From the NCBI GenBank assembly GCA_964535505.1, contig CAZHUH010000001.1, positions 125,591 through 189,590 of the forward strand: a stretch of 64,000 bases of DNA, written 5' to 3'. Position 1 is the stretch's first letter. Each line of letters opens with the position of its first letter. Positions 34,870 through 41,459 of the stretch are shown here, piece after piece. The position numbers and the translations under genes are program-made. The stretch comes from an uncultured Oscillospiraceae bacterium. GTDB taxonomy: Bacteria; Bacillota; Clostridia; Christensenellales; CAG-314. The notes under the pieces were generated by a model. The model saw only the letters and a list, made by a program, of their open reading frames with translations, did no database searches and had not been told where the DNA came from.

Positions 34870-35169
34870 TTATAAAATTTGTTTTTCAAATGAACACCAC
34901 ATCTTTGAGAGAACAACCTTCGATTTTGCATAAGATGTGTGGATAGAAATATGCTCCGTTACTATTTTATTTTGAAATCCAACCCCACCATGTTCTTCGC
35001 TCAAATTTCTATTTTCGTCCACCTGTCTAGCCGTTTTTTGGATCATAGCGTTATCGCTCGTCAATGCCGCGAAAGGAGAGAATTGCGCCGCCCTGTCCAA
35101 AAGTGACATTTGCGGATGGGTTTTCGATATATAATGAAGATGGTTAATAATGCTGTCATACTTGCCCAT
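34870..35169 (-). CDS. YolD-like family protein, probably C-terminally degenerate
   Basis: 99 aa. The N-terminal half (MSLLDRAAQFSPFAALTSDNAMIQKTARQVDE) matches the clostridial YolD-like pattern as I remember it. The C-terminal half does not. No adjacent Y-family polymerase gene. Confidence 0.5.
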   Translation of the reverse strand: MGKYDSIINHLHYISKTHPQMSLLDRAAQFSPFAALTSDNAMIQKTARQVDENRNLSEEHGGVGFQNKIVTEHISIHTSYAKSKVVLSKMWCSFEKQIL

Positions 35170-35260
35170 GTTACCTCACCCCCCTAACCATTTGAATGTG
35201 CCTCTACCCTCTACAAGGCTCTGATATTCATTTACACATAGGAAATTAAACCCTTTATGT

Positions 35261-35296
35261 AAAAGAAAACAGGTTCAATACTTTCGTATCAAACCT
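35261..35296 (-). terminator. Intrinsic terminator after tRNA-Ala
   Basis: Minus strand AGGTTTGATAC-GAAA-GTATTGAACCT (11 bp, two G-U) followed by GTTTTCTTTT. Confidence 0.6.
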
Positions 35297-35308
35297 ATGC
35301 TTTTCTTA

Positions 35309-35384
35309 TGGTGGAGCTAAGGGGATTCGAACCCCTGGCCTTTTGACTGCCAGTCAAACGCGCTACCAACTGCGCCATAGCCCC
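35309..35384 (-). tRNA. tRNA-Ala (anticodon GGC), CCA encoded
   Basis: Hand-folded cloverleaf. Acceptor GGGGCUA/UAGCUCC with the G3:U70 Ala identity pair. Anticodon loop CUGGCAG. T-arm GGTTCGAATCC. Confidence 0.95.
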
Positions 35385-35455
35385 AAATTATTTTTGGGTT
35401 CGACATTTTGGCTGTATAACGTTACCAAACTGCGGCAAAATTCATTTGCAAATGT

Positions 35456-35484
35456 ATTATACAATAAAACCGTGTGTATGTCAA
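35456..35484 (-). promoter_or_regulatory. Consensus sigma-A promoter for tRNA-Ala
   Basis: Minus strand TTGACA-17 nt-TATAAT, about 65 nt upstream of the mature tRNA 5' end. Confidence 0.7.
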
Positions 35485-35536
35485 AGCAAATTTCGGTTTT
35501 CTTTAATGATTTTTTTATTGCGTATATTTTATAATG

Positions 35537-35570
35537 TCTTGCGAAAGATAATGATTTCGCAAGATTTTTT
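35537..35570 (+). terminator. Orphan plus-strand intrinsic terminator
   Basis: Perfect 10-bp stem TCTTGCGAAA/TTTCGCAAGA, 8-nt loop, then T6. No annotated plus-strand gene upstream. Confidence 0.6.
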
Positions 35571-35613
35571 ATCAAATCAAATCGTTGCAATGCTTTTTGA
35601 CATTTTCTTGATT

Positions 35614-35941
35614 TTATATTCTTTGCAAATGAGAATACTCAAAACGCACAAGCGGAAAGGCGATTGCATACATTTTCAGCCGTACTGTGCCCAAATTACC
35701 CGCCGTTAAAGCCCTTAGCCGCACTCGCCACACCCCACCCACACCGCCTGCGGAATTTTCAGCCGCCTCATCGGCAAATGCCTGCACGGCGGTTACTCCC
35801 GAAAGTTCATCCGCGCTTTTTGACGCCTGTTTTATTCCCTCGCCGCCTAAACTTTCAAGCATTGAGCGAACCTCCGAATGTATTTTGCCGCCCGATGCGC
35901 CGCCGAACCGGTAGCAGAGCGAGAATGAAAAGAAGTCGCAT
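35614..35941 (-). pseudogene. Frameshifted small ORF of unknown family with an apparently intact promoter and SD
   Basis: AAGGAG-8 nt-ATG at 35941 opens MRLLFILALLPV... and stops after 28 codons. The adjacent frame continues ...GGASGGKIHSEVRSMLESLGGEGIKQASKSADELSGVTAVQAFADEAAENSAGGVGG... to 35614. TTGAAT-16 nt-TAATAT lies upstream. The stretch is locally GC-rich. Confidence 0.3.
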
Positions 35942-36426
35942 AAATTTTACTCCTTGCATATTTCGATATTATCAGTATATACAAGTAATTCAATGAAAGT
36001 TTTTAAAAGTTATTCGCAAGAAGTCCCCAAAGCGGCAGCTCTACGGAAAACAACGCCAATAGGAACTTGAACAATGGCGTAAACGGCAGTTCAGAAAGCA
36101 AAAAAGCGGAATGATTTCCGCGGTGGAAATGGGCTTAAATTTTGTCGCGGGCGATAAACGGTAAAAGCGAAGGACAGATTTTGAACACAATCATTGCCGA
36201 AGCGGAGCACAGAAAGCGCACGGAAACGCTTACTAACACAGATTTAGACAATTTTACAACAGTCTTCAACCGCTAGACGGATTTAAGCAAAAAACCTAAA
36301 GAAATGATAACCACATTGAAACAAATTATATTACCCGAAAGCGGCACCATGCAAATTCACGGCACCGCTTCCAAGCGTATTAAAAATCAGAAGAATTGAA
36401 ACAAATAAGCAAATACTCAAAAGAAA

Positions 36427-37356
36427 TTAATCGGCAAACAACGGCGTTGAAAGATATCTGTCACCCGTGTCGGGAAGCACAACCACGATGTTTTTGCCAA
36501 TGTTTTCGGGGCGTTTGGCAAGTTCTGTCGCCGCCCACAGCGCCGCGCCCGATGAAATGCCCACAAGGAAGCCCTCTACCCTGCCAAGCTCTTTGCCCGT
36601 GGCAAAAGCCGCCTCGTTTTCAACGGTTATAATTTCGTCGTAGATCTTTGTATCGAGCACGTCTGGCACAAAACCTGCGCCTATGCCCTGTATTTTATGC
36701 GTGCCCGCAACGCCCGTTGAAAGCACAGCGGAAGTGGCCGGTTCCACAGCTACTATCTTAACATTGGGGTTTTTCCCCTTCAAATACTGCCCCGCACCAG
36801 TAATGGTACCGCCCGTTCCAACCCCTGCAACGAAAATATCAACCTTGCCTTCGGTATCCTCCCAAATTTCGGGACCCGTAGTGGCAAAATGCGCGGCGGG
36901 GTTTGCGGGATTGACAAACTGCCCTATAATTATACTACCTTCTATTTCGGCTTTGAGTTCTTCGGCTTTGGCAATAGCGCCCTTCATGCCCTTCGCACCA
37001 TCAGTAAGCACAATCTGTGCGCCGTATGCTTTGATAAGGCTGCGGCGTTCCACGCTCATCGTTTCAGGCATAGTGAGAATGACTTTATACCCCTTTGCCG
37101 CCGCAATAGCCGCAAGACCTATACCCGTATTGCCGGACGTAGGCTCTATGATGGTTGCTCCCGCTTTAAGCTTGCCGCTTTTTTCCGCATCCTCAATCAT
37201 GGCTTTTGCGATTCTGTCCTTGACGGAACCCGCAGGGTTGAAGTATTCCAATTTTGCCAATACTTTGGCTTTGAGGTTGTGTTTATTTTCGTAATTTGTT
37301 AATTCAAGAAGGGGTGTTTTACCCACAAGCTCTGTTATTGATTTATATACAGGCAT
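36427..37356 (-). CDS. cysK: Cysteine synthase A (O-acetylserine sulfhydrylase)
   Basis: 309 aa. PLP-lysine region NPAGSVKDR and GTGGT loop. Full-length CysK pattern. Confidence 0.95.
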
Positions 37357-37418
37357 TTTATTATTCTCCTTTTGACGTCATTTTATTTTTTTTTGAATTT
37401 TTATAGCGTAATTTGGCT

Positions 37419-37472
37419 TCAGATTCGTACACGCATTCGTATTTTGGAACAACATCGGAAATCTAATTTCAT
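37419..37472 (-). CDS. Candidate 17-aa leader peptide with tandem Cys codons in the cysK 5' UTR
   Basis: GGAGG-6 nt-ATG. ATG AAA TTA GAT TTC CGA TGT TGT TCC AAA ATA CGA ATG CGT GTA CGA ATC TGA translates to MKLDFRCCSKIRMRVRI. Confidence 0.35.
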   Translation of the reverse strand: MKLDFRCCSKIRMRVRI

Positions 37473-37523
37473 AGAACACCTCCGCCATTTATTATTGATA
37501 CTTTTTTATTTTTGTTTTATCCG

Positions 37524-37540
37524 TAATCCCTATCGGATTA
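37524..37540. promoter_or_regulatory. Inverted repeat TAATCC-N5-GGATTA at about +4 to +20 of the cysK promoter
   Basis: TAATCCCTATCGGATTA lies just downstream of the -10. The half ATAGGGATTA resembles the 3' part of the B. subtilis CymR box as I remember it. Confidence 0.4.
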
Positions 37541-37550
37541 GTATGGTATC

Positions 37551-37579
37551 ATAATACCGACTTATTATACGTTTGTCAA
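37551..37579 (-). promoter_or_regulatory. Sigma-A promoter of cysK
   Basis: Minus strand TTGACA-17 nt-TATTAT, leaving a ~190-nt 5' UTR. Confidence 0.65.
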
Positions 37580-37618
37580 GCAAAATAGAAACTTTTTTTA
37601 AATTTTTTTACAGAACAA

Positions 37619-37661
37619 ACCGCCGTTCTATGCATGTTTAAAACACGCAAAGCGCGGCGGT
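37619..37661 (-). terminator. Terminator-like hairpin after the Rrf2 gene
   Basis: GC-rich stem ACCGCCG/CGGCGGT enclosing an inner hairpin. The downstream U-tract (TTGTTCTGT) is weak. Confidence 0.4.
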
Positions 37662-37676
37662 ATCATTATATTAATA

Positions 37677-38105
37677 TTAAATACTGTAAAAATCCGCCGA
37701 ATCGGGGGTAGAGTCCACAAGATCCTGCAACGTTATGCCGTCAAGATAGTTATTAACACATTCGTTAAGCCCTTGCCAAAGCTTGCGCGTTGCGCAACCC
37801 GCACCATGCGGACAGTGGCTTGACGGATTGCAATCCACAAGCGAAATATCGCCTTCGGTTTTACGCAAAATCTCACCGACGGTGATATCCTGTGGTTTTT
37901 TCAGAAGTTCGTACCCGCCCTGCGAACCGCGAACGCTCCTTAACAAACCGCACCTAACAAGATTGCCCGTTATCTGCTCGGTATATTTTGCCGTTATGCC
38001 CTGACGCGAGGAAATGTCCGCTATCCTAACGGGAGTGCTTCCGCCATGCTGTGCAATATCGATCAAAATCCAAACACTGTATCTGCCTTTTGTAGAAATT
38101 TTCAT
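37677..38105 (-). CDS. Rrf2-family transcriptional regulator with three clustered Cys (IscR/CymR-like)
   Basis: 142 aa. N-terminal wHTH (MKISTKGRYSVWILIDIA) and C-x6-C-x5-C cluster (VDCNPSSHCPHGAGC), suggesting Fe-S ligation. Confidence 0.9.
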   Translation of the reverse strand: MKISTKGRYSVWILIDIAQHGGSTPVRIADISSRQGITAKYTEQITGNLVRCGLLRSVRGSQGGYELLKKPQDITVGEILRKTEGDISLVDCNPSSHCPHGAGCATRKLWQGLNECVNNYLDGITLQDLVDSTPDSADFYSI

Positions 38106-38160
38106 AAATTGTAACCCACCGTTAGAAAACTCAGTATACTATATCGTTACTACATATTAA

Positions 38161-38189
38161 ATTATAATACTATGTGCGGATATTGTCAA
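38161..38189 (-). promoter_or_regulatory. Consensus sigma-A promoter of the Rrf2 gene
   Basis: Minus strand TTGACA-17 nt-TATAAT, about 50 nt upstream of the ATG. Confidence 0.7.
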
Positions 38190-38350
38190 GCTCGCACCGC
38201 AGCCTTTAGGTGCTCGGGCGGGCGTTCTTAAATTATTTGTCATGCGCTCGCCACCATTTTTAGCGCGCTTAAGAAAACTGCATCTGTTTGTACCTTGACA
38301 GATTCTCCTCTGTTCAAACTAGATAGTCCCCACCATTTTGATTTGTCCTA

Positions 38351-38545
38351 TTCTTTGAATTAACCGTTAAAATTAGTCTGCTATATTAAATTGTTATTAG
38401 TTACTATGTCTGAAATAGTATTCTGCCCTAACAGGATTTTAGATATACTTTGACTGTCTTATGATATAAAAACATCACAAATAACCTTCTCGTCATTTTC
38501 ACACATCGTTGCCAATGCTGTTAGAAAGTACATCATTTTTTTGTT
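38351..38545 (+). repeat. Long direct repeat, left copy (REP-like long form, copy 6, plus relic of an SDR gene 3' end)
   Basis: 38351-38488 is ~85-90% identical by eye to 43211-43354 and includes the core ACTATGTCTGAAATAGTATTCTGC at 38403-38426. 38478-38545 is colinear (~60% by eye) with the last ~20 codons of the SDR gene at 43344. Confidence 0.75.
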
Positions 38546-38558
38546 TACAACTCTACTG

Positions 38559-39740
38559 CTATTTTTCATGTTGCAAGTGAACCGAGCAAAGAATCGTCAC
38601 AAAGTTTATTGCCAACAACACCAAAAAAGAAATGAATATTGAAAATAAATCGAAGTTGAATCCAAATTTTACCCCGGCAATAAGCGCAGAAAAGTCGCAA
38701 AGCGCATTGGCGAAAACAGCCGACACACCAATAGATAAGACAAACGACACTACGGATAGCACGAGATATTCCATAACAAAAACTACGAACAGTTGCTTTT
38801 TCTCCAAGCCAAATGCCCGAACTGCCGTTACAAATTTTTGTTTTTTGTTGAGATAATTGCTTATTATAACAAATTGTATTACAGAATAGACAATGCCCAC
38901 CACTACAAAGATCAAAATCAACACGTTTTGCATAAAGTGAGCTATTTTTTCCAATTCCTCTATACCCCAATTTGTAATTGTATTTGGCATCACGTTTTCT
39001 TCACCGTAATGTTCGATAAGCATTTTTTGCACATTATCGATGTTTTCTTTATTTACAAAGACTTCAAGCATATCGCTGTTCGCATTTGCGTCCAAAAGCA
39101 AAAAGCAAGAATAACCTCCGATTTTATTCAAACTATCAAGTGCCGTTATTTTGGTCAGTTCAGACGCAAAAACTCCTACAACAGTTGCTTTTTCTATATA
39201 GTAGCTGTTAAAAACAGGTTCAAAAACATCAATGGTTTTGCCTAACAAAACAGAGTAGTCGTAAATTTGCAAACTGTCGACAAAATCCGAAGCAAGCAAT
39301 ATTTCATTGTCCGACTGCGACAATCGTCCGGCAAGTATCAGCTTTGTGTCGCTTATTTGTTCAAATTCCTGCAGATAAGCTTGGGGCAGCAACGCCGAAC
39401 AACTCTCCCCCTTTACAACGGCAACATTAGTCTGAAACGTACCTACCTCCTCGATAGACACATTTCCCGATAGGTAAAAAATTTTGTTCATCGGCGCAAC
39501 CTCGTTCACAAACTGAAACTGCTCAATTGAGGAAATTTCCGTCTTGTCTGCACGAACAAATACCGAATTGCCACTACTGCGGCTGTTGAGAAGTTGTGAA
39601 ATGGATTTTTGTACAGAGGCAGAAAACATTGCGGCAGTCAGCACCACAAAAGAAAGTGCAAAAATCATAAAGCTTCGTCCCAATGCGTTCATCCAATAAC
39701 AACGCAAGTTTTGCATAGCTAACTTAAAAGAGGTTTTCAT
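38559..39740 (-). CDS. FtsX/MacB-type ABC permease subunit B
   Basis: 393 aa. TM1, ~220-aa extracytoplasmic domain, then 3 C-terminal TMs. 4-nt overlap with the upstream permease gene. Confidence 0.8.
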   Translation of the reverse strand: MKTSFKLAMQNLRCYWMNALGRSFMIFALSFVVLTAAMFSASVQKSISQLLNSRSSGNSVFVRADKTEISSIEQFQFVNEVAPMNKIFYLSGNVSIEEVGTFQTNVAVVKGESCSALLPQAYLQEFEQISDTKLILAGRLSQSDNEILLASDFVDSLQIYDYSVLLGKTIDVFEPVFNSYYIEKATVVGVFASELTKITALDSLNKIGGYSCFLLLDANANSDMLEVFVNKENIDNVQKMLIEHYGEENVMPNTITNWGIEELEKIAHFMQNVLILIFVVVGIVYSVIQFVIISNYLNKKQKFVTAVRAFGLEKKQLFVVFVMEYLVLSVVSFVLSIGVSAVFANALCDFSALIAGVKFGFNFDLFSIFISFLVLLAINFVTILCSVHLQHEK

Positions 39741-40810
39741 TTGTTATCAACCCCCATCACCTTATTCCTACCGAAAATAGATATTGTCGCGGCAACGACG
39801 AGTATTATCAAGCAACACACAAATTCCAAACAAAACACAAGAAAAATGTTGTGTGAATAATATACAACACCCAAGATATTTTCCGCCCACGTTGTTATCA
39901 AATAGTTTATTCCCAAACTCGCAACCGACGCCAAAACACAGGCAATAAAACCGACAATGGCGAATATAACACATATTTCGCCTACCAATGCGGCTTTTGA
40001 ACTTCCCAAGAGACGTATAACACGCAAAACGTTCTCTCTTTTGATAAAATAAACATTTATCAACCCTATCAAAAGTGCCACAAACAATACTTCCAAGATA
40101 ACTACAATGACGTCTAATCCAACAAGAAAGCTTTTGTAGCCACGGCAAAATGACAAAAGCCCTTCTTCATCGTCTAAAAGATCTTGCGGCAATTCCGACA
40201 GTCGCAAAAGTTGTTCGGCATCTGTTGCCGTTACAAAAAAAGAACCGCTGTACACACTATGTGGCGTGCGATATATCAAAAATGAAACATTTCCTGCGAT
40301 ACAATCTGGCAAATCACTCGGCGAAAAGGTCCCCACAACGCTAAGCGTTTCTTCGTTCAATGTAATATCGTCGCCCACTTGGCATTCAATTAAAGCGGCA
40401 AGTTCATCCGCAAGCCAAATTGCGTGCTCATTCTTGGAAAAAGTTTCGCCAGATGTTGCTCTCGGTAAAACATCTACTTTGTCGCATACAAAAAACACGC
40501 AAACTCCGCCGACATAACTCGGAAAATTTTGCGCGTTGTCATTGTGCACTATTTTTGTATTGTACGTTAAGCCGTCAATTCTACCATACACAAAAAAATC
40601 CTCTAAATTCGTGCTCAACAGTGCATTATTTTCGCTTTTAAGCACAACAAATGAATCTTTTTGGAATTTGTCGGAATATGCCGCAGGAAGTTGAAAAACA
40701 AGATTGCCCAAAACCGCAATAATGGACAGGAGCACGGAAAGACTCAAAATCGACAGTGCAAAAAATACTGCGTTTGTTTTAAATTCTTTTATGGCAATGC
40801 GCGACAACAT
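39737..40810 (-). CDS. FtsX/MacB-type ABC permease subunit A
   Basis: Same architecture as subunit B. Start moved to ATG 40810 (MLSRIAIKEF), adjacent to the ATPase stop. Confidence 0.8.
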   Translation of the reverse strand: MLSRIAIKEFKTNAVFFALSILSLSVLLSIIAVLGNLVFQLPAAYSDKFQKDSFVVLKSENNALLSTNLEDFFVYGRIDGLTYNTKIVHNDNAQNFPSYVGGVCVFFVCDKVDVLPRATSGETFSKNEHAIWLADELAALIECQVGDDITLNEETLSVVGTFSPSDLPDCIAGNVSFLIYRTPHSVYSGSFFVTATDAEQLLRLSELPQDLLDDEEGLLSFCRGYKSFLVGLDVIVVILEVLFVALLIGLINVYFIKRENVLRVIRLLGSSKAALVGEICVIFAIVGFIACVLASVASLGINYLITTWAENILGVVYYSHNIFLVFCLEFVCCLIILVVAATISIFGRNKVMGVDNK

Positions 40811-40811
40811 A

Positions 40812-41459
40812 TCAAACAATCCTTCCGTCCAACAACTCAATAACTTTATCAGGTTTTGTAACATCCTGTGGCTGATGCGTCACCAAAACGACTGTGGTTC
40901 CGCTATTTTTTACTGAATACAACAGGTTTATAACCGCTTCACTGTTTTGTTTGTCCAAATTGCCGCATGGCTCGTCGGCAAAAATAATTTGCGGTTTATT
41001 CACAAGTGCGCGAGCAACACCTACTCTTTGCTGTTCTCCTCCCGAAAGAATCTCCGTTCGCTTGTTCAAAAGGCTTGAAATTCCAACAAATGCCGCTACC
41101 TCGCGAACACGGCTCTTGCGCTTTGCTGTGCTATCTCCCTTAATCAGCATAGGCAATTCGATATTTTCAAAAGCCGTGTACTTAGGCTCCAATGCGTAGG
41201 ATTGAAAAATGAAGCCGATTTTTTGGTTCCGAAAACAACACTTTTCCGATTCCGTCATTTGGTAAATATTTTTTCCGTCAATCAGCACTTCGCCGGAACT
41301 GGGCAAAAGCAACCCACACATACATTTGAGCAAGGTGCTTTTTCCACTGCCGCTACGCCCGGTGACAACTATAAACTCTCCGTTGTCTACCTCAAAGTTA
41401 ATATCGTTCAGCGCTACGCAATTTTCATATTTTTTTGTAAGATTTATTACTTCAATCAT
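40812..41459 (-). CDS. ABC ATP-binding protein (MacB/LolD/FtsE-like)
   Basis: 215 aa. Walker A GRSGSGKST, signature LSGGEQQR, Walker B IFADEP. Confidence 0.9.
   Translation of the reverse strand: MIEVINLTKKYENCVALNDINFEVDNGEFIVVTGRSGSGKSTLLKCMCGLLLPSSGEVLIDGKNIYQMTESEKCCFRNQKIGFIFQSYALEPKYTAFENIELPMLIKGDSTAKRKSRVREVAAFVGISSLLNKRTEILSGGEQQRVGVARALVNKPQIIFADEPCGNLDKQNSEAVINLLYSVKNSGTTVVLVTHQPQDVTKPDKVIELLDGRIV

Follow-up and report, generated by a model that had tools for sequence, protein, structure and literature searches.

A cysteine-codon leader reading frame and an Rrf2-type operator upstream of cysK as candidate layers of control in uncultured Clostridia

The rrf2-cysK locus and its leader

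The window analyzed here, a whole stretch of 64,000 nucleotides from the genome of an uncultured Oscillospiraceae bacterium (contig CAZHUH010000001.1, positions 125,591 to 189,590), harbors a cysteine synthase gene (cysK) preceded on the same strand by a gene coding for an Rrf2-family regulator (rrf2). The leader of cysK contains an operator-like inverted repeat and a short upstream open reading frame (uORF), led by a Shine-Dalgarno (SD) sequence, with two adjacent Cys codons. Both elements recur in related loci, and they may represent two layers of cysK control, a repressor and a ribosome-based cysteine sensor. The features of the locus, given as coordinates, strand and nature, are the following:

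38189..38161, minus strand: rrf2 promoter TTGACA-17-TATAAT, 12 of 12 consensus positions
38156..38135, minus strand: operator-like box TATGTAGTAACGATATAGTATA, directly 3' of the rrf2 -10 element, putative autoregulation site
38105..37677, minus strand: rrf2, 142-amino-acid Rrf2-family regulator (Pfam PF02082, 2.6e-39)
37661..37619, minus strand: hairpin past the rrf2 stop codon, inverted repeat with 21-nt arms, 81% complementary
37579..37551, minus strand: cysK promoter TTGACA-17-TATTAT, 11 of 12 consensus positions
37545..37524, minus strand: operator CATACTAATCCGATAGGGATTA, with the inverted-repeat core TAATCC-GATAG-GGATTA at 37540..37524
37483..37479, minus strand: SD of the uORF, GGAGG, with a 6-nt spacer to the ATG (read from the sequence)
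37472 (ATG) to 37419 (TGA), minus strand: uORF MKLDFRCCSKIRMRVRI, 17 codons and stop, with TGT TGT at 37454..37449
37460..37449, minus strand: conserved uORF core TTC CGA TGT TGT
37382..37365, minus strand: AATGACGTC-AAA-AGGAGA, the cysK SD with the stretch 5' of it, predicted partner of the uORF core GAUUUCCGAUGUUGUU
37370..37365, minus strand: cysK SD, AGGAGA
37356..36427, minus strand: cysK, cysteine synthase A (O-acetylserine sulfhydrylase), 309 amino acids (NCBIfam TIGR01139)

The cysK product is a member of the TIGR01139 equivalog, with 443.6 bits for a cut-off of 350.95. Its leader is around 188 nt long; given a transcription start near 37544, the inverted repeat lies at about +4 to +20, and the uORF begins around 72 nt past this predicted start, between the promoter and cysK. 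The spacer between the operator and the SD of the uORF is A-rich, as are the 48 nt between the uORF and the cysK SD. In the relatives, TTGACA and the -10 element are found at the same place in the cysK promoters. An earlier, sequence-only reading of this stretch had described cysK as having its own promoter (TTGACA-17-TATTAT) and a leader of about 190 nt, with GGAGG 6 nt before a 17-codon ORF bearing TGT TGT and a repeat TAATCC-N5-GGATTA at about +4 to +20, and all of these features are present. It had also taken the Rrf2 gene for a divergent neighbor; rrf2 lies instead upstream of cysK on the same strand, with a terminator-like hairpin between the two genes. This hairpin (37619..37661) is a probable terminator dividing the rrf2 and cysK transcription units, and the close relative L001 has at this position a near-perfect long terminator stem followed by TTTGTT.

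Conservation of the leader reading frame

Homologs of the Rrf2 protein were located in one genome per species and in public assemblies. The comparison set comprised 13 distinct leaders lying after rrf2 and before cysK or metY, with Rrf2 proteins 47% to 100% identical to that of the window. The relatives (their loci are designated by L-numbers) are all metagenome-assembled genomes or raw assemblies of uncultured Clostridia, and represent around nine independent lineages. Two further loci, P0019 and P0024, where rrf2 lies beside unrelated genes, were uninformative. A metagenome scan with the Rrf2 alignment retrieved only homologs with 43% to 53% identity, whose cysK or metY leaders are mostly short, with a ATAGGAAAT-type box and no uORF.

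An SD-led uORF with Cys codons is present in 11 of the 13 leaders, the SD being located 5 to 8 nt upstream of the start codon in all of them. Nine distinct cysK leaders share, along with the SD and the start, the core [F/Y]-R-C-C (TTY CGA TGT TGY), with adjacent Cys codons in seven of the nine. The uORFs that precede metY in L032 and L003 are longer, each with two separated Cys codons. The peptides read as follows:

window: MKLDFRCCSKIRMRVRI
L001: MKLDFRCCSGIRMCVRM
L002: MKLDFRCRSRMRMQK
L018: MKLDFRCCSRMRM
L016: MFAFYRCCRLKERM
L031: MYNFFRCCRMSGRM
L020: MKVFFRCCSFKHK
L021: MTDFRCCFLDQKNAVTE
L024: TTG start, MFFRC-stop
L032, before metY: ...GRMRRCRSC...
L003, before metY-cysK: ...GRMCRLSSC...

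Outside of the operator and the uORF core the leaders are not alignable, and the rest of the peptide varies. The sequence-only reading had proposed to look in related genomes for an SD-led short ORF with adjacent Cys codons and a variable remainder, and this is largely what the relatives display: the core is kept in nine cysK leaders and the Cys-Cys pair in seven, with two of the 13 leaders devoid of a uORF. More generally, the conservation in relatives supports its suggestion of a Cys-codon leader peptide combined with an Rrf2 operator.

Among 50,000 composition-matched random leaders, an SD-led ORF of 4 to 45 codons with two adjacent Cys codons arises around 30 times (6e-4), and a uORF holding any Cys codon in about 3.8%. 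Cys represents around 12% of the uORF codons (hand count from the peptides) against 2.1% in the long ORFs of the window. The codons of the core are minor ones, CGA accounting for 10.6% of Arg codons and TGT for 34% of Cys codons; in every case the core encodes Arg by CGA and its first Cys by TGT. Both CGA and UGU are wobble-decoded (I:A for CGA, G:U for UGU), and this pair may be a fitting choice for making two codons sensitive to tRNA charging.

Hardly any variation is seen in the 12-nt core TTY CGA TGT TGY, where the two bases that do vary correspond to third codon positions. In the subgroup of peptides reading MKLDFRCCS, Leu is encoded by TTA, TTG, CTT and CTC, Lys by AAA or AAG, Phe by TTC or TTT, and Ser by TCC or TCT, with a single non-synonymous change. 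Because of these synonymous changes and of the third-position variation in the core, the frame is likely read, and the substitution pattern points to its translation. A 36-codon ORF in another frame (37378..37488, minus strand) overlaps with the uORF; lacking an SD and preserved solely in the near-identical L001, it was discarded as incidental.

A translated uORF could also be unrelated to cysteine sensing and act as a constitutive 5' stabilizer, its strong SD and 5'-proximal ribosome protecting the mRNA, or code for an FRCC micropeptide, with cysteine control exerted by Rrf2 only. Such a role would be in agreement with the MKLDF amino acids being kept through synonymous changes, with the strong GGAGG in every leader, with the lack of a conserved structure downstream of the uORF, and with the retention of the operator alone in L030 and L033. 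However, the peptide ends vary freely outside of the subgroup and the uORF of L024 is reduced to MFFRC, which is hard to square with a folded or binding peptide. Moreover, the universal part consists only of the Cys codons and their immediate context, always with the minor CGA and TGT, and the amino-acid bias tracks the downstream gene, as illustrated by the Met codons before metY in L080. We consider this explanation rather unlikely.

That the uORF is a functionless remnant, such as one of the mnmA 3' end, appears highly improbable. The MnmA of L065 reads ...AFRCCAKIRYKQ... directly upstream of cysK, and a 10-residue match (FRCCSKIRMR with FRCCAKIRYK) has an E-value of 0.002 against the leaders alone. 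This value rises to 0.73 against the whole window, other MnmA proteins have no FRCC, and no further trace of mnmA was found in any leader; the SD, the start, the frame and the core have been kept while their surroundings diverged, unlike what is expected of a relic. In L065 (100-350) the gene coding for MnmA, a tRNA 2-thiouridylase, ends 26 nt before cysK, and its likeness to the uORF segment DFRCCSKIRMR is probably a coincidence.

In the metY leader of L080, the nucleotide core is present (GCGATGTTCATGCGAATGCGAATGT, to be compared with CCGATGTTGTTCCCGAATGCGAATGT in L018) and is read one base out of frame. The SD-led uORF of this leader has 37 codons, of which five internal ones are Met and none is Cys, and includes the stretch E-A-M-F-M-R-M-R-M-Y. 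The motif TTGATGTTA of L003 is likewise read in the ATG frame. The codon bias of the uORFs follows the downstream gene, with Met before metY (L080) and Cys before cysK. The frame-shifted core may mean either that the nucleotides matter rather than the codons, or that small indels retune the sensor to the downstream product; this second reading appears to fit the gene context, in few cases. A strong intrinsic terminator (GCCAGGG…CCCTGGCTTTT) follows the Met-rich uORF of L080 (around 1025-1330 on the minus strand of the locus), and masking predicted no change in terminator/antiterminator switching in this leader.

If the nucleotides are what matters, the string YCGATGTTG, together with the CGAATG repeats, would act as RNA or DNA, for example as an anti-SD, a protein site or an auxiliary half-operator, and the frame would be incidental. 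The exclusive use of CGA for Arg and of TGT for the first Cys, the different frame of the same string in L003 and L080, the TCCGAT common to the string and the left half of the operator (TTCCGAT in the main operator), and the fact that no part of the leader complements the SD better than the core all point in this direction. We nevertheless find such an element unlikely, as the string comes with an SD at 5 to 8 nt, a start codon and an in-frame stop in all 11 cases, variation falls at third codon positions with four Leu codons in use, the string is not palindromic, unlike Rrf2 sites, and CGAATG within the uORFs is always in frame as Arg-Met.

The operator and the Rrf2 regulator

The nearly invariant box CATACTAwTCCGATAGGGATTA lies 3' of the -10 element of 12 close cysK/metY leaders, and can be recognized in L003. 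It overlaps the transcription start, and would also fold into a stem-loop at the 5' terminus of the mRNA, one that the predictions show in every leader. Within the window, the operator 19-mer has a single occurrence for 0.01 expected, and a position-weight-matrix scan of these 64 kb identified no other convincing copy of the operator. A related box, CATAkAATAAC(G/T)ATAkGG, follows the -10 element of rrf2 in ten loci (the window, L001, L002, L016, L018, L020, L021, L024, L031 and L032). The presence of related boxes at both promoters supports a repression of cysK and an autoregulation of rrf2 by the same Rrf2 protein, as can be judged from sequence. A scan of viral contigs with an operator 18-mer (L115-L123) matched one phage family, two spacers against it (L118 and L121) of the clustered regularly interspaced short palindromic repeats (CRISPR) type, and two single sequences; none of these matches lies near cysK or rrf2, and their number is close to the chance expectation.

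The Rrf2 protein scores above the cut-off of the NCBIfam model rrf2_super. It falls below the equivalog cut-offs of IscR (133.7 bits for 207.55 in TIGR02010, 104.6 for 275 in NF008110) and of the NCBIfam CymR model (113.8 bits for 195). The nearest solved structures are IscR 4CIC (2.3e-28), attributed to Thermincola potens, and Escherichia coli IscR 4HF0; among CymR structures, 2Y75 matches at 7.5e-22 and 3T8R at 3.1e-21. Cys92, Cys98 and Cys104 align with the Cys ligands of IscR and form a C-x5-C-x5-C motif, which corrects the C-x6-C-x5-C cluster of the sequence-only reading, and residue 107 is an Arg. In IscR, this position presumably is the His107 that provides the fourth cluster ligand.

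The C-terminus of the protein is ...ADFYSI (37680-37694, minus strand), where D138, Y140 and I142 are invariant in 20 homologs, giving the pattern D-[FY]-Y-x-I. This tail resembles the ...YMFYI end of Staphylococcus aureus CymR and is also similar to the C-terminal peptides of CysE that insert into CysK. In S. aureus, the CymR tail EDLDGYMFYI docks in the active site of CysK, with an affinity in the nanomolar range (10.1101/2024.09.19.614015). With an IscR-type Cys triad and a CymR-like tail, the regulator looks like an IscR/CymR hybrid as far as its sequence goes. A pair formed by an Rrf2 gene and cysK, with a predicted CymR site, is also known in Clostridium acetobutylicum, where the regulator has been proposed to be CymR (CAC2236-CAC2235; PMC3828012).

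The Rrf2-operator layer is a variant of a known system. It appears to share with the CymR-CysK pair of Bacillus subtilis and S. aureus an Rrf2-family repressor, an operator at the cysK promoter and an aromatic-x-Ile C-terminus. Unlike CymR, the regulator of the window lies below the CymR cut-off and carries the IscR-type triad Cys92/98/104, which we take to be missing from B. subtilis CymR, with S. aureus CymR presumably having a single Cys. The system of the window has in addition an autoregulatory box, and its operator CATACTAwTCCGATAGGGATTA is, we believe, only loosely similar to the B. subtilis CymR box. IscR, the [2Fe-2S] regulator of iron-sulfur (Fe-S) cluster biogenesis, likewise has Cys at 92/98/104; the protein of the window differs from it by the Arg at 107, by an equivalog score below the cut-off, by the location of its gene beside cysK and not isc/suf, and by its CysK-type docking tail.

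In most relatives (L016, L018, L020, L021, L022 and L031), a class-V aminotransferase (cysteine desulfurase-like) gene and a divergent selenium/sulfur (Se/S)-carrier gene are found upstream of rrf2. In the window, ORFs similar to permeases of ATP-binding cassette transporters (38559..40864, minus strand) replace this aminotransferase/Se-S-carrier neighborhood. A tRNA gene (35312-35384, minus strand; Rfam RF00005, 73 bits) is located around 1 kb downstream of cysK.

Leader RNA, proposed control of cysK and known systems

An Rfam search at E<=10 over positions 35000-39000 revealed no T-box or other family in the cysK leader, and a search at gathering score over the 13 related loci gave nothing in any leader. 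No terminator-like site was identified by a terminator scan of the window leader, neither this leader nor that of L001 has a terminator-like hairpin or a U tract, and folding with and without a ribosome mask showed no terminator/antiterminator alternative. The sequence-only reading, which had seen neither a T-box nor a convincing terminator/antiterminator pair, is borne out on both points, the latter by the terminator scan, the folding and RNAalifold alike. With no T-box, terminator, alternative fold or conserved structure, classical trp-type attenuation is unlikely in the window.

The general form of this model, in which a ribosome would, depending on where it stands on the uORF, favor an antiterminator or a terminator, or expose a Rho site, seems very unlikely to us. 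It draws on the tandem end-product codons that are the hallmark of trp/his-type attenuators, here Cys-Cys, on the good intrinsic terminators of the related leaders L033 and L080, and on GC-rich hairpins between the uORF and the SD in several relatives. However, the window leader and that of L001 lack both hairpin and U tract, so that the tandem codons are there and the terminator/antiterminator pair of the trp/his type is not. The hairpins of the relatives have no U tracts, are unchanged by uORF masking in the folds and lie 40 to 100 nt from the uORF stop; moreover, the leader is A-rich and not C-rich, hence poor for Rho. The GC-rich hairpins are variable in sequence and occupy, in L016, L020, L021, L024 and L031, the 30-45 nt before the cysK SD, at 6 to 15 nt from it; AATAGGC-like bases precede them in L016, L020 and L021. 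Neither the window nor L001 has such a hairpin. The cysK leader of L033 (1066-1280), with an operator and no uORF, has a canonical terminator (CCGCAG-GCG-CTGCGG-TTTTT) and no recognizable sensor.

A different interaction is predicted between the uORF core and the cysK SD. In the window, the core GAUUUCCGAUGUUGUU pairs with AAUGACGUC-AAAA-GGAGA in the minimum-free-energy (MFE) and centroid folds, and ranks first among 151 segments of the leader for pairing with the SD region; this pairing is found in the MFE structure and in the base-pair probabilities of both the window and L001. For this ranking, an 18-nt segment was slid along each of nine leaders against the SD region (-20..+3). In seven of the nine, the most stable duplex falls within the footprint that a ribosome stalling on the first Cys codon would have, and this location is near best in the other two. 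The stretch complementary to the SD precedes the Cys codons in some lineages (UUUUCC) and follows them in others (CUCCUUUAA in L020, GCUUCUU in L021), always within this footprint. Folding with a ribosome mask clearly frees the SD only in L001, L024, L031 and L003, and weakly in the window.

We propose that cysK is under two layers of control, an Rrf2/CysK repressor at the operator and a Cys uORF read by the ribosome, a reading to which we give a probability of roughly 55% from the sequence comparisons. In the first layer, Rrf2 would bind the operator over the cysK transcription start, and the related box at its own promoter. Like the CymR tail, its ...DFYSI tail would probably dock into the active site of CysK, which would act as co-repressor, with O-acetylserine as inducer; an Fe-S or redox signal may in addition enter through the IscR-type Cys triad. 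In the second layer, the 17-codon uORF would be translated and, when charged tRNA-Cys is scarce, the ribosome would pause at UGU UGU, right after the slow minor codon CGA. The paused ribosome would then cover the pyrimidine-rich core UUUCCGAUGUUGUU, otherwise paired with the cysK SD region, and cysK translation would increase; with plentiful cysteine, the uORF would be read through rapidly and the SD masked again. Stalling close to the 5' end may also let the ribosome shield the mRNA from 5'-to-3' decay. We infer the translation of the uORF, its dependence on cysteine, the masking of the SD and the binding of Rrf2 and CysK from the sequence features described above, from their conservation and from the signs of a kept frame.

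Several observations weigh against this proposal. The second core Cys is replaced by Arg in L002 and by a stop in L024, and L030 and L033 keep the operator without a uORF. MKLDF is kept at the amino-acid level, which a pure codon sensor would not need, and CGATGT is strict at the nucleotide level and lies in another frame in L003 and L080, which could mean an RNA- or DNA-level element. RNAalifold on nine leaders finds no conserved structure (-1 kcal/mol), and the window leader folds with the same energy as its shuffled versions (z = 0). Swapping SD regions between leaders weakens the duplexes non-significantly (p ~0.13-0.17), indicating a generic complementarity, and only the duplexes of L020 and L021 beat composition shuffles. 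Finally, the full-leader folds of L002, L016, L020, L021 and L031 prefer local hairpins, with no pairing between the core and the SD.

Taken on its own, SD unmasking is a tentative mechanism, to which we would give somewhat less than even odds. The protection of the mRNA by a stalled ribosome, which requires no downstream structure, is equally compatible with the data. Such protection from 5'-to-3' decay by a stalled ribosome is known for ermC in Firmicutes. A broader and rather doubtful extension of the two-layer proposal is that a sulfur-amino-acid sensor read by the ribosome is built on one core (CGATGTT and CGAATG repeats), in series with the hybrid Rrf2 repressor, its specificity being set by the frame. 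This would be Arg-Cys-Cys before cysK and the Met-rich A-M-F-M-R-M-R-M before metY, and single-base indels would retune a Cys sensor into a Met sensor.

The closest known counterparts of the uORF are the polycysteine short ORFs of mycobacteria (the "Cys ribulon" of Canestrari et al.), where stalled ribosomes block a duplex sequestering the ribosome-binding site (RBS) and two consecutive Cys codons suffice (10.1101/834739). Cys leader peptides had been predicted earlier in Actinobacteria (PMC1262725), and leader peptides for other amino acids have been reported in Firmicutes (PMC2965389, PMC5794164). A full-text search of the literature, covering open-access papers only and thus no proof of absence, found cysteine leader peptides reported solely in Actinobacteria, with experimental demonstration confined to mycobacteria. 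The uORF of the window shares with the mycobacterial attenuators a short ORF with at least two consecutive Cys codons preceding a cysteine-metabolism gene on the same transcript, a proposed sensing by ribosome pausing at low tRNA-Cys charging over the complement of the downstream RBS, and the lack of an intrinsic terminator. Unlike the leaderless mycobacterial ORFs, it is SD-led and starts around 72 nt into the leader. It also belongs to Clostridia and has no sequence similarity to its mycobacterial counterparts; it has only two Cys codons, in a conserved F-R-C-C context with the minor CGA and TGT, its predicted SD duplex is short, and a repressor operator is located on the same leader. The proposed principle is as in mycobacteria; what sets the system of the window apart is the unrelated lineage, the SD-led uORF, the distinctive codon context and the stacking on a repressor operator.

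Similarly to the translational attenuation of ermC and cat, an SD-led leader peptide is present, and a stalled ribosome would free the downstream SD and stabilize the mRNA. Unlike in these systems, the signal would be the supply of aminoacyl-tRNA and not an antibiotic, and no stable stem-loop pair is evident. Cys-specific T-box leaders are found on cysK, cysP and ubiG in Clostridium (PMC2940859), and perform the same task of linking tRNA-Cys charging to cysK control; the window leader differs by having no T-box match and by a proposed sensing through the ribosome and not through a tRNA-binding RNA. The T-box specifier is TGC, whereas the first Cys codon of the window-type uORFs is always TGT.

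In Firmicutes, leaders are thought to monitor amino-acid supply chiefly by T-boxes, and leader peptides specific for an amino acid are uncommon. The frame-set sensor, if it existed, would give this phylum its first amino-acid-specific leader-peptide system for cysteine. The combination of an IscR-like triad with a CymR-like tail suggests that Fe-S status may be linked to cysteine synthesis, and the fixed slow pair CGA-UGU offers a hypothesis for how two codons become sensitive enough. The study of Clostridium perfringens that described the T-boxes noted that clostridia with no cysK T-box must use another mechanism (PMC2940859), and the control proposed here would, if true, provide an answer to this question. 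It would also illustrate, in compact form, how a single leader can combine a repressor with a translational sensor, and would imply that ribosome-based cysteine sensing arose independently in a second phylum, in a clade of gut and digester Clostridia.

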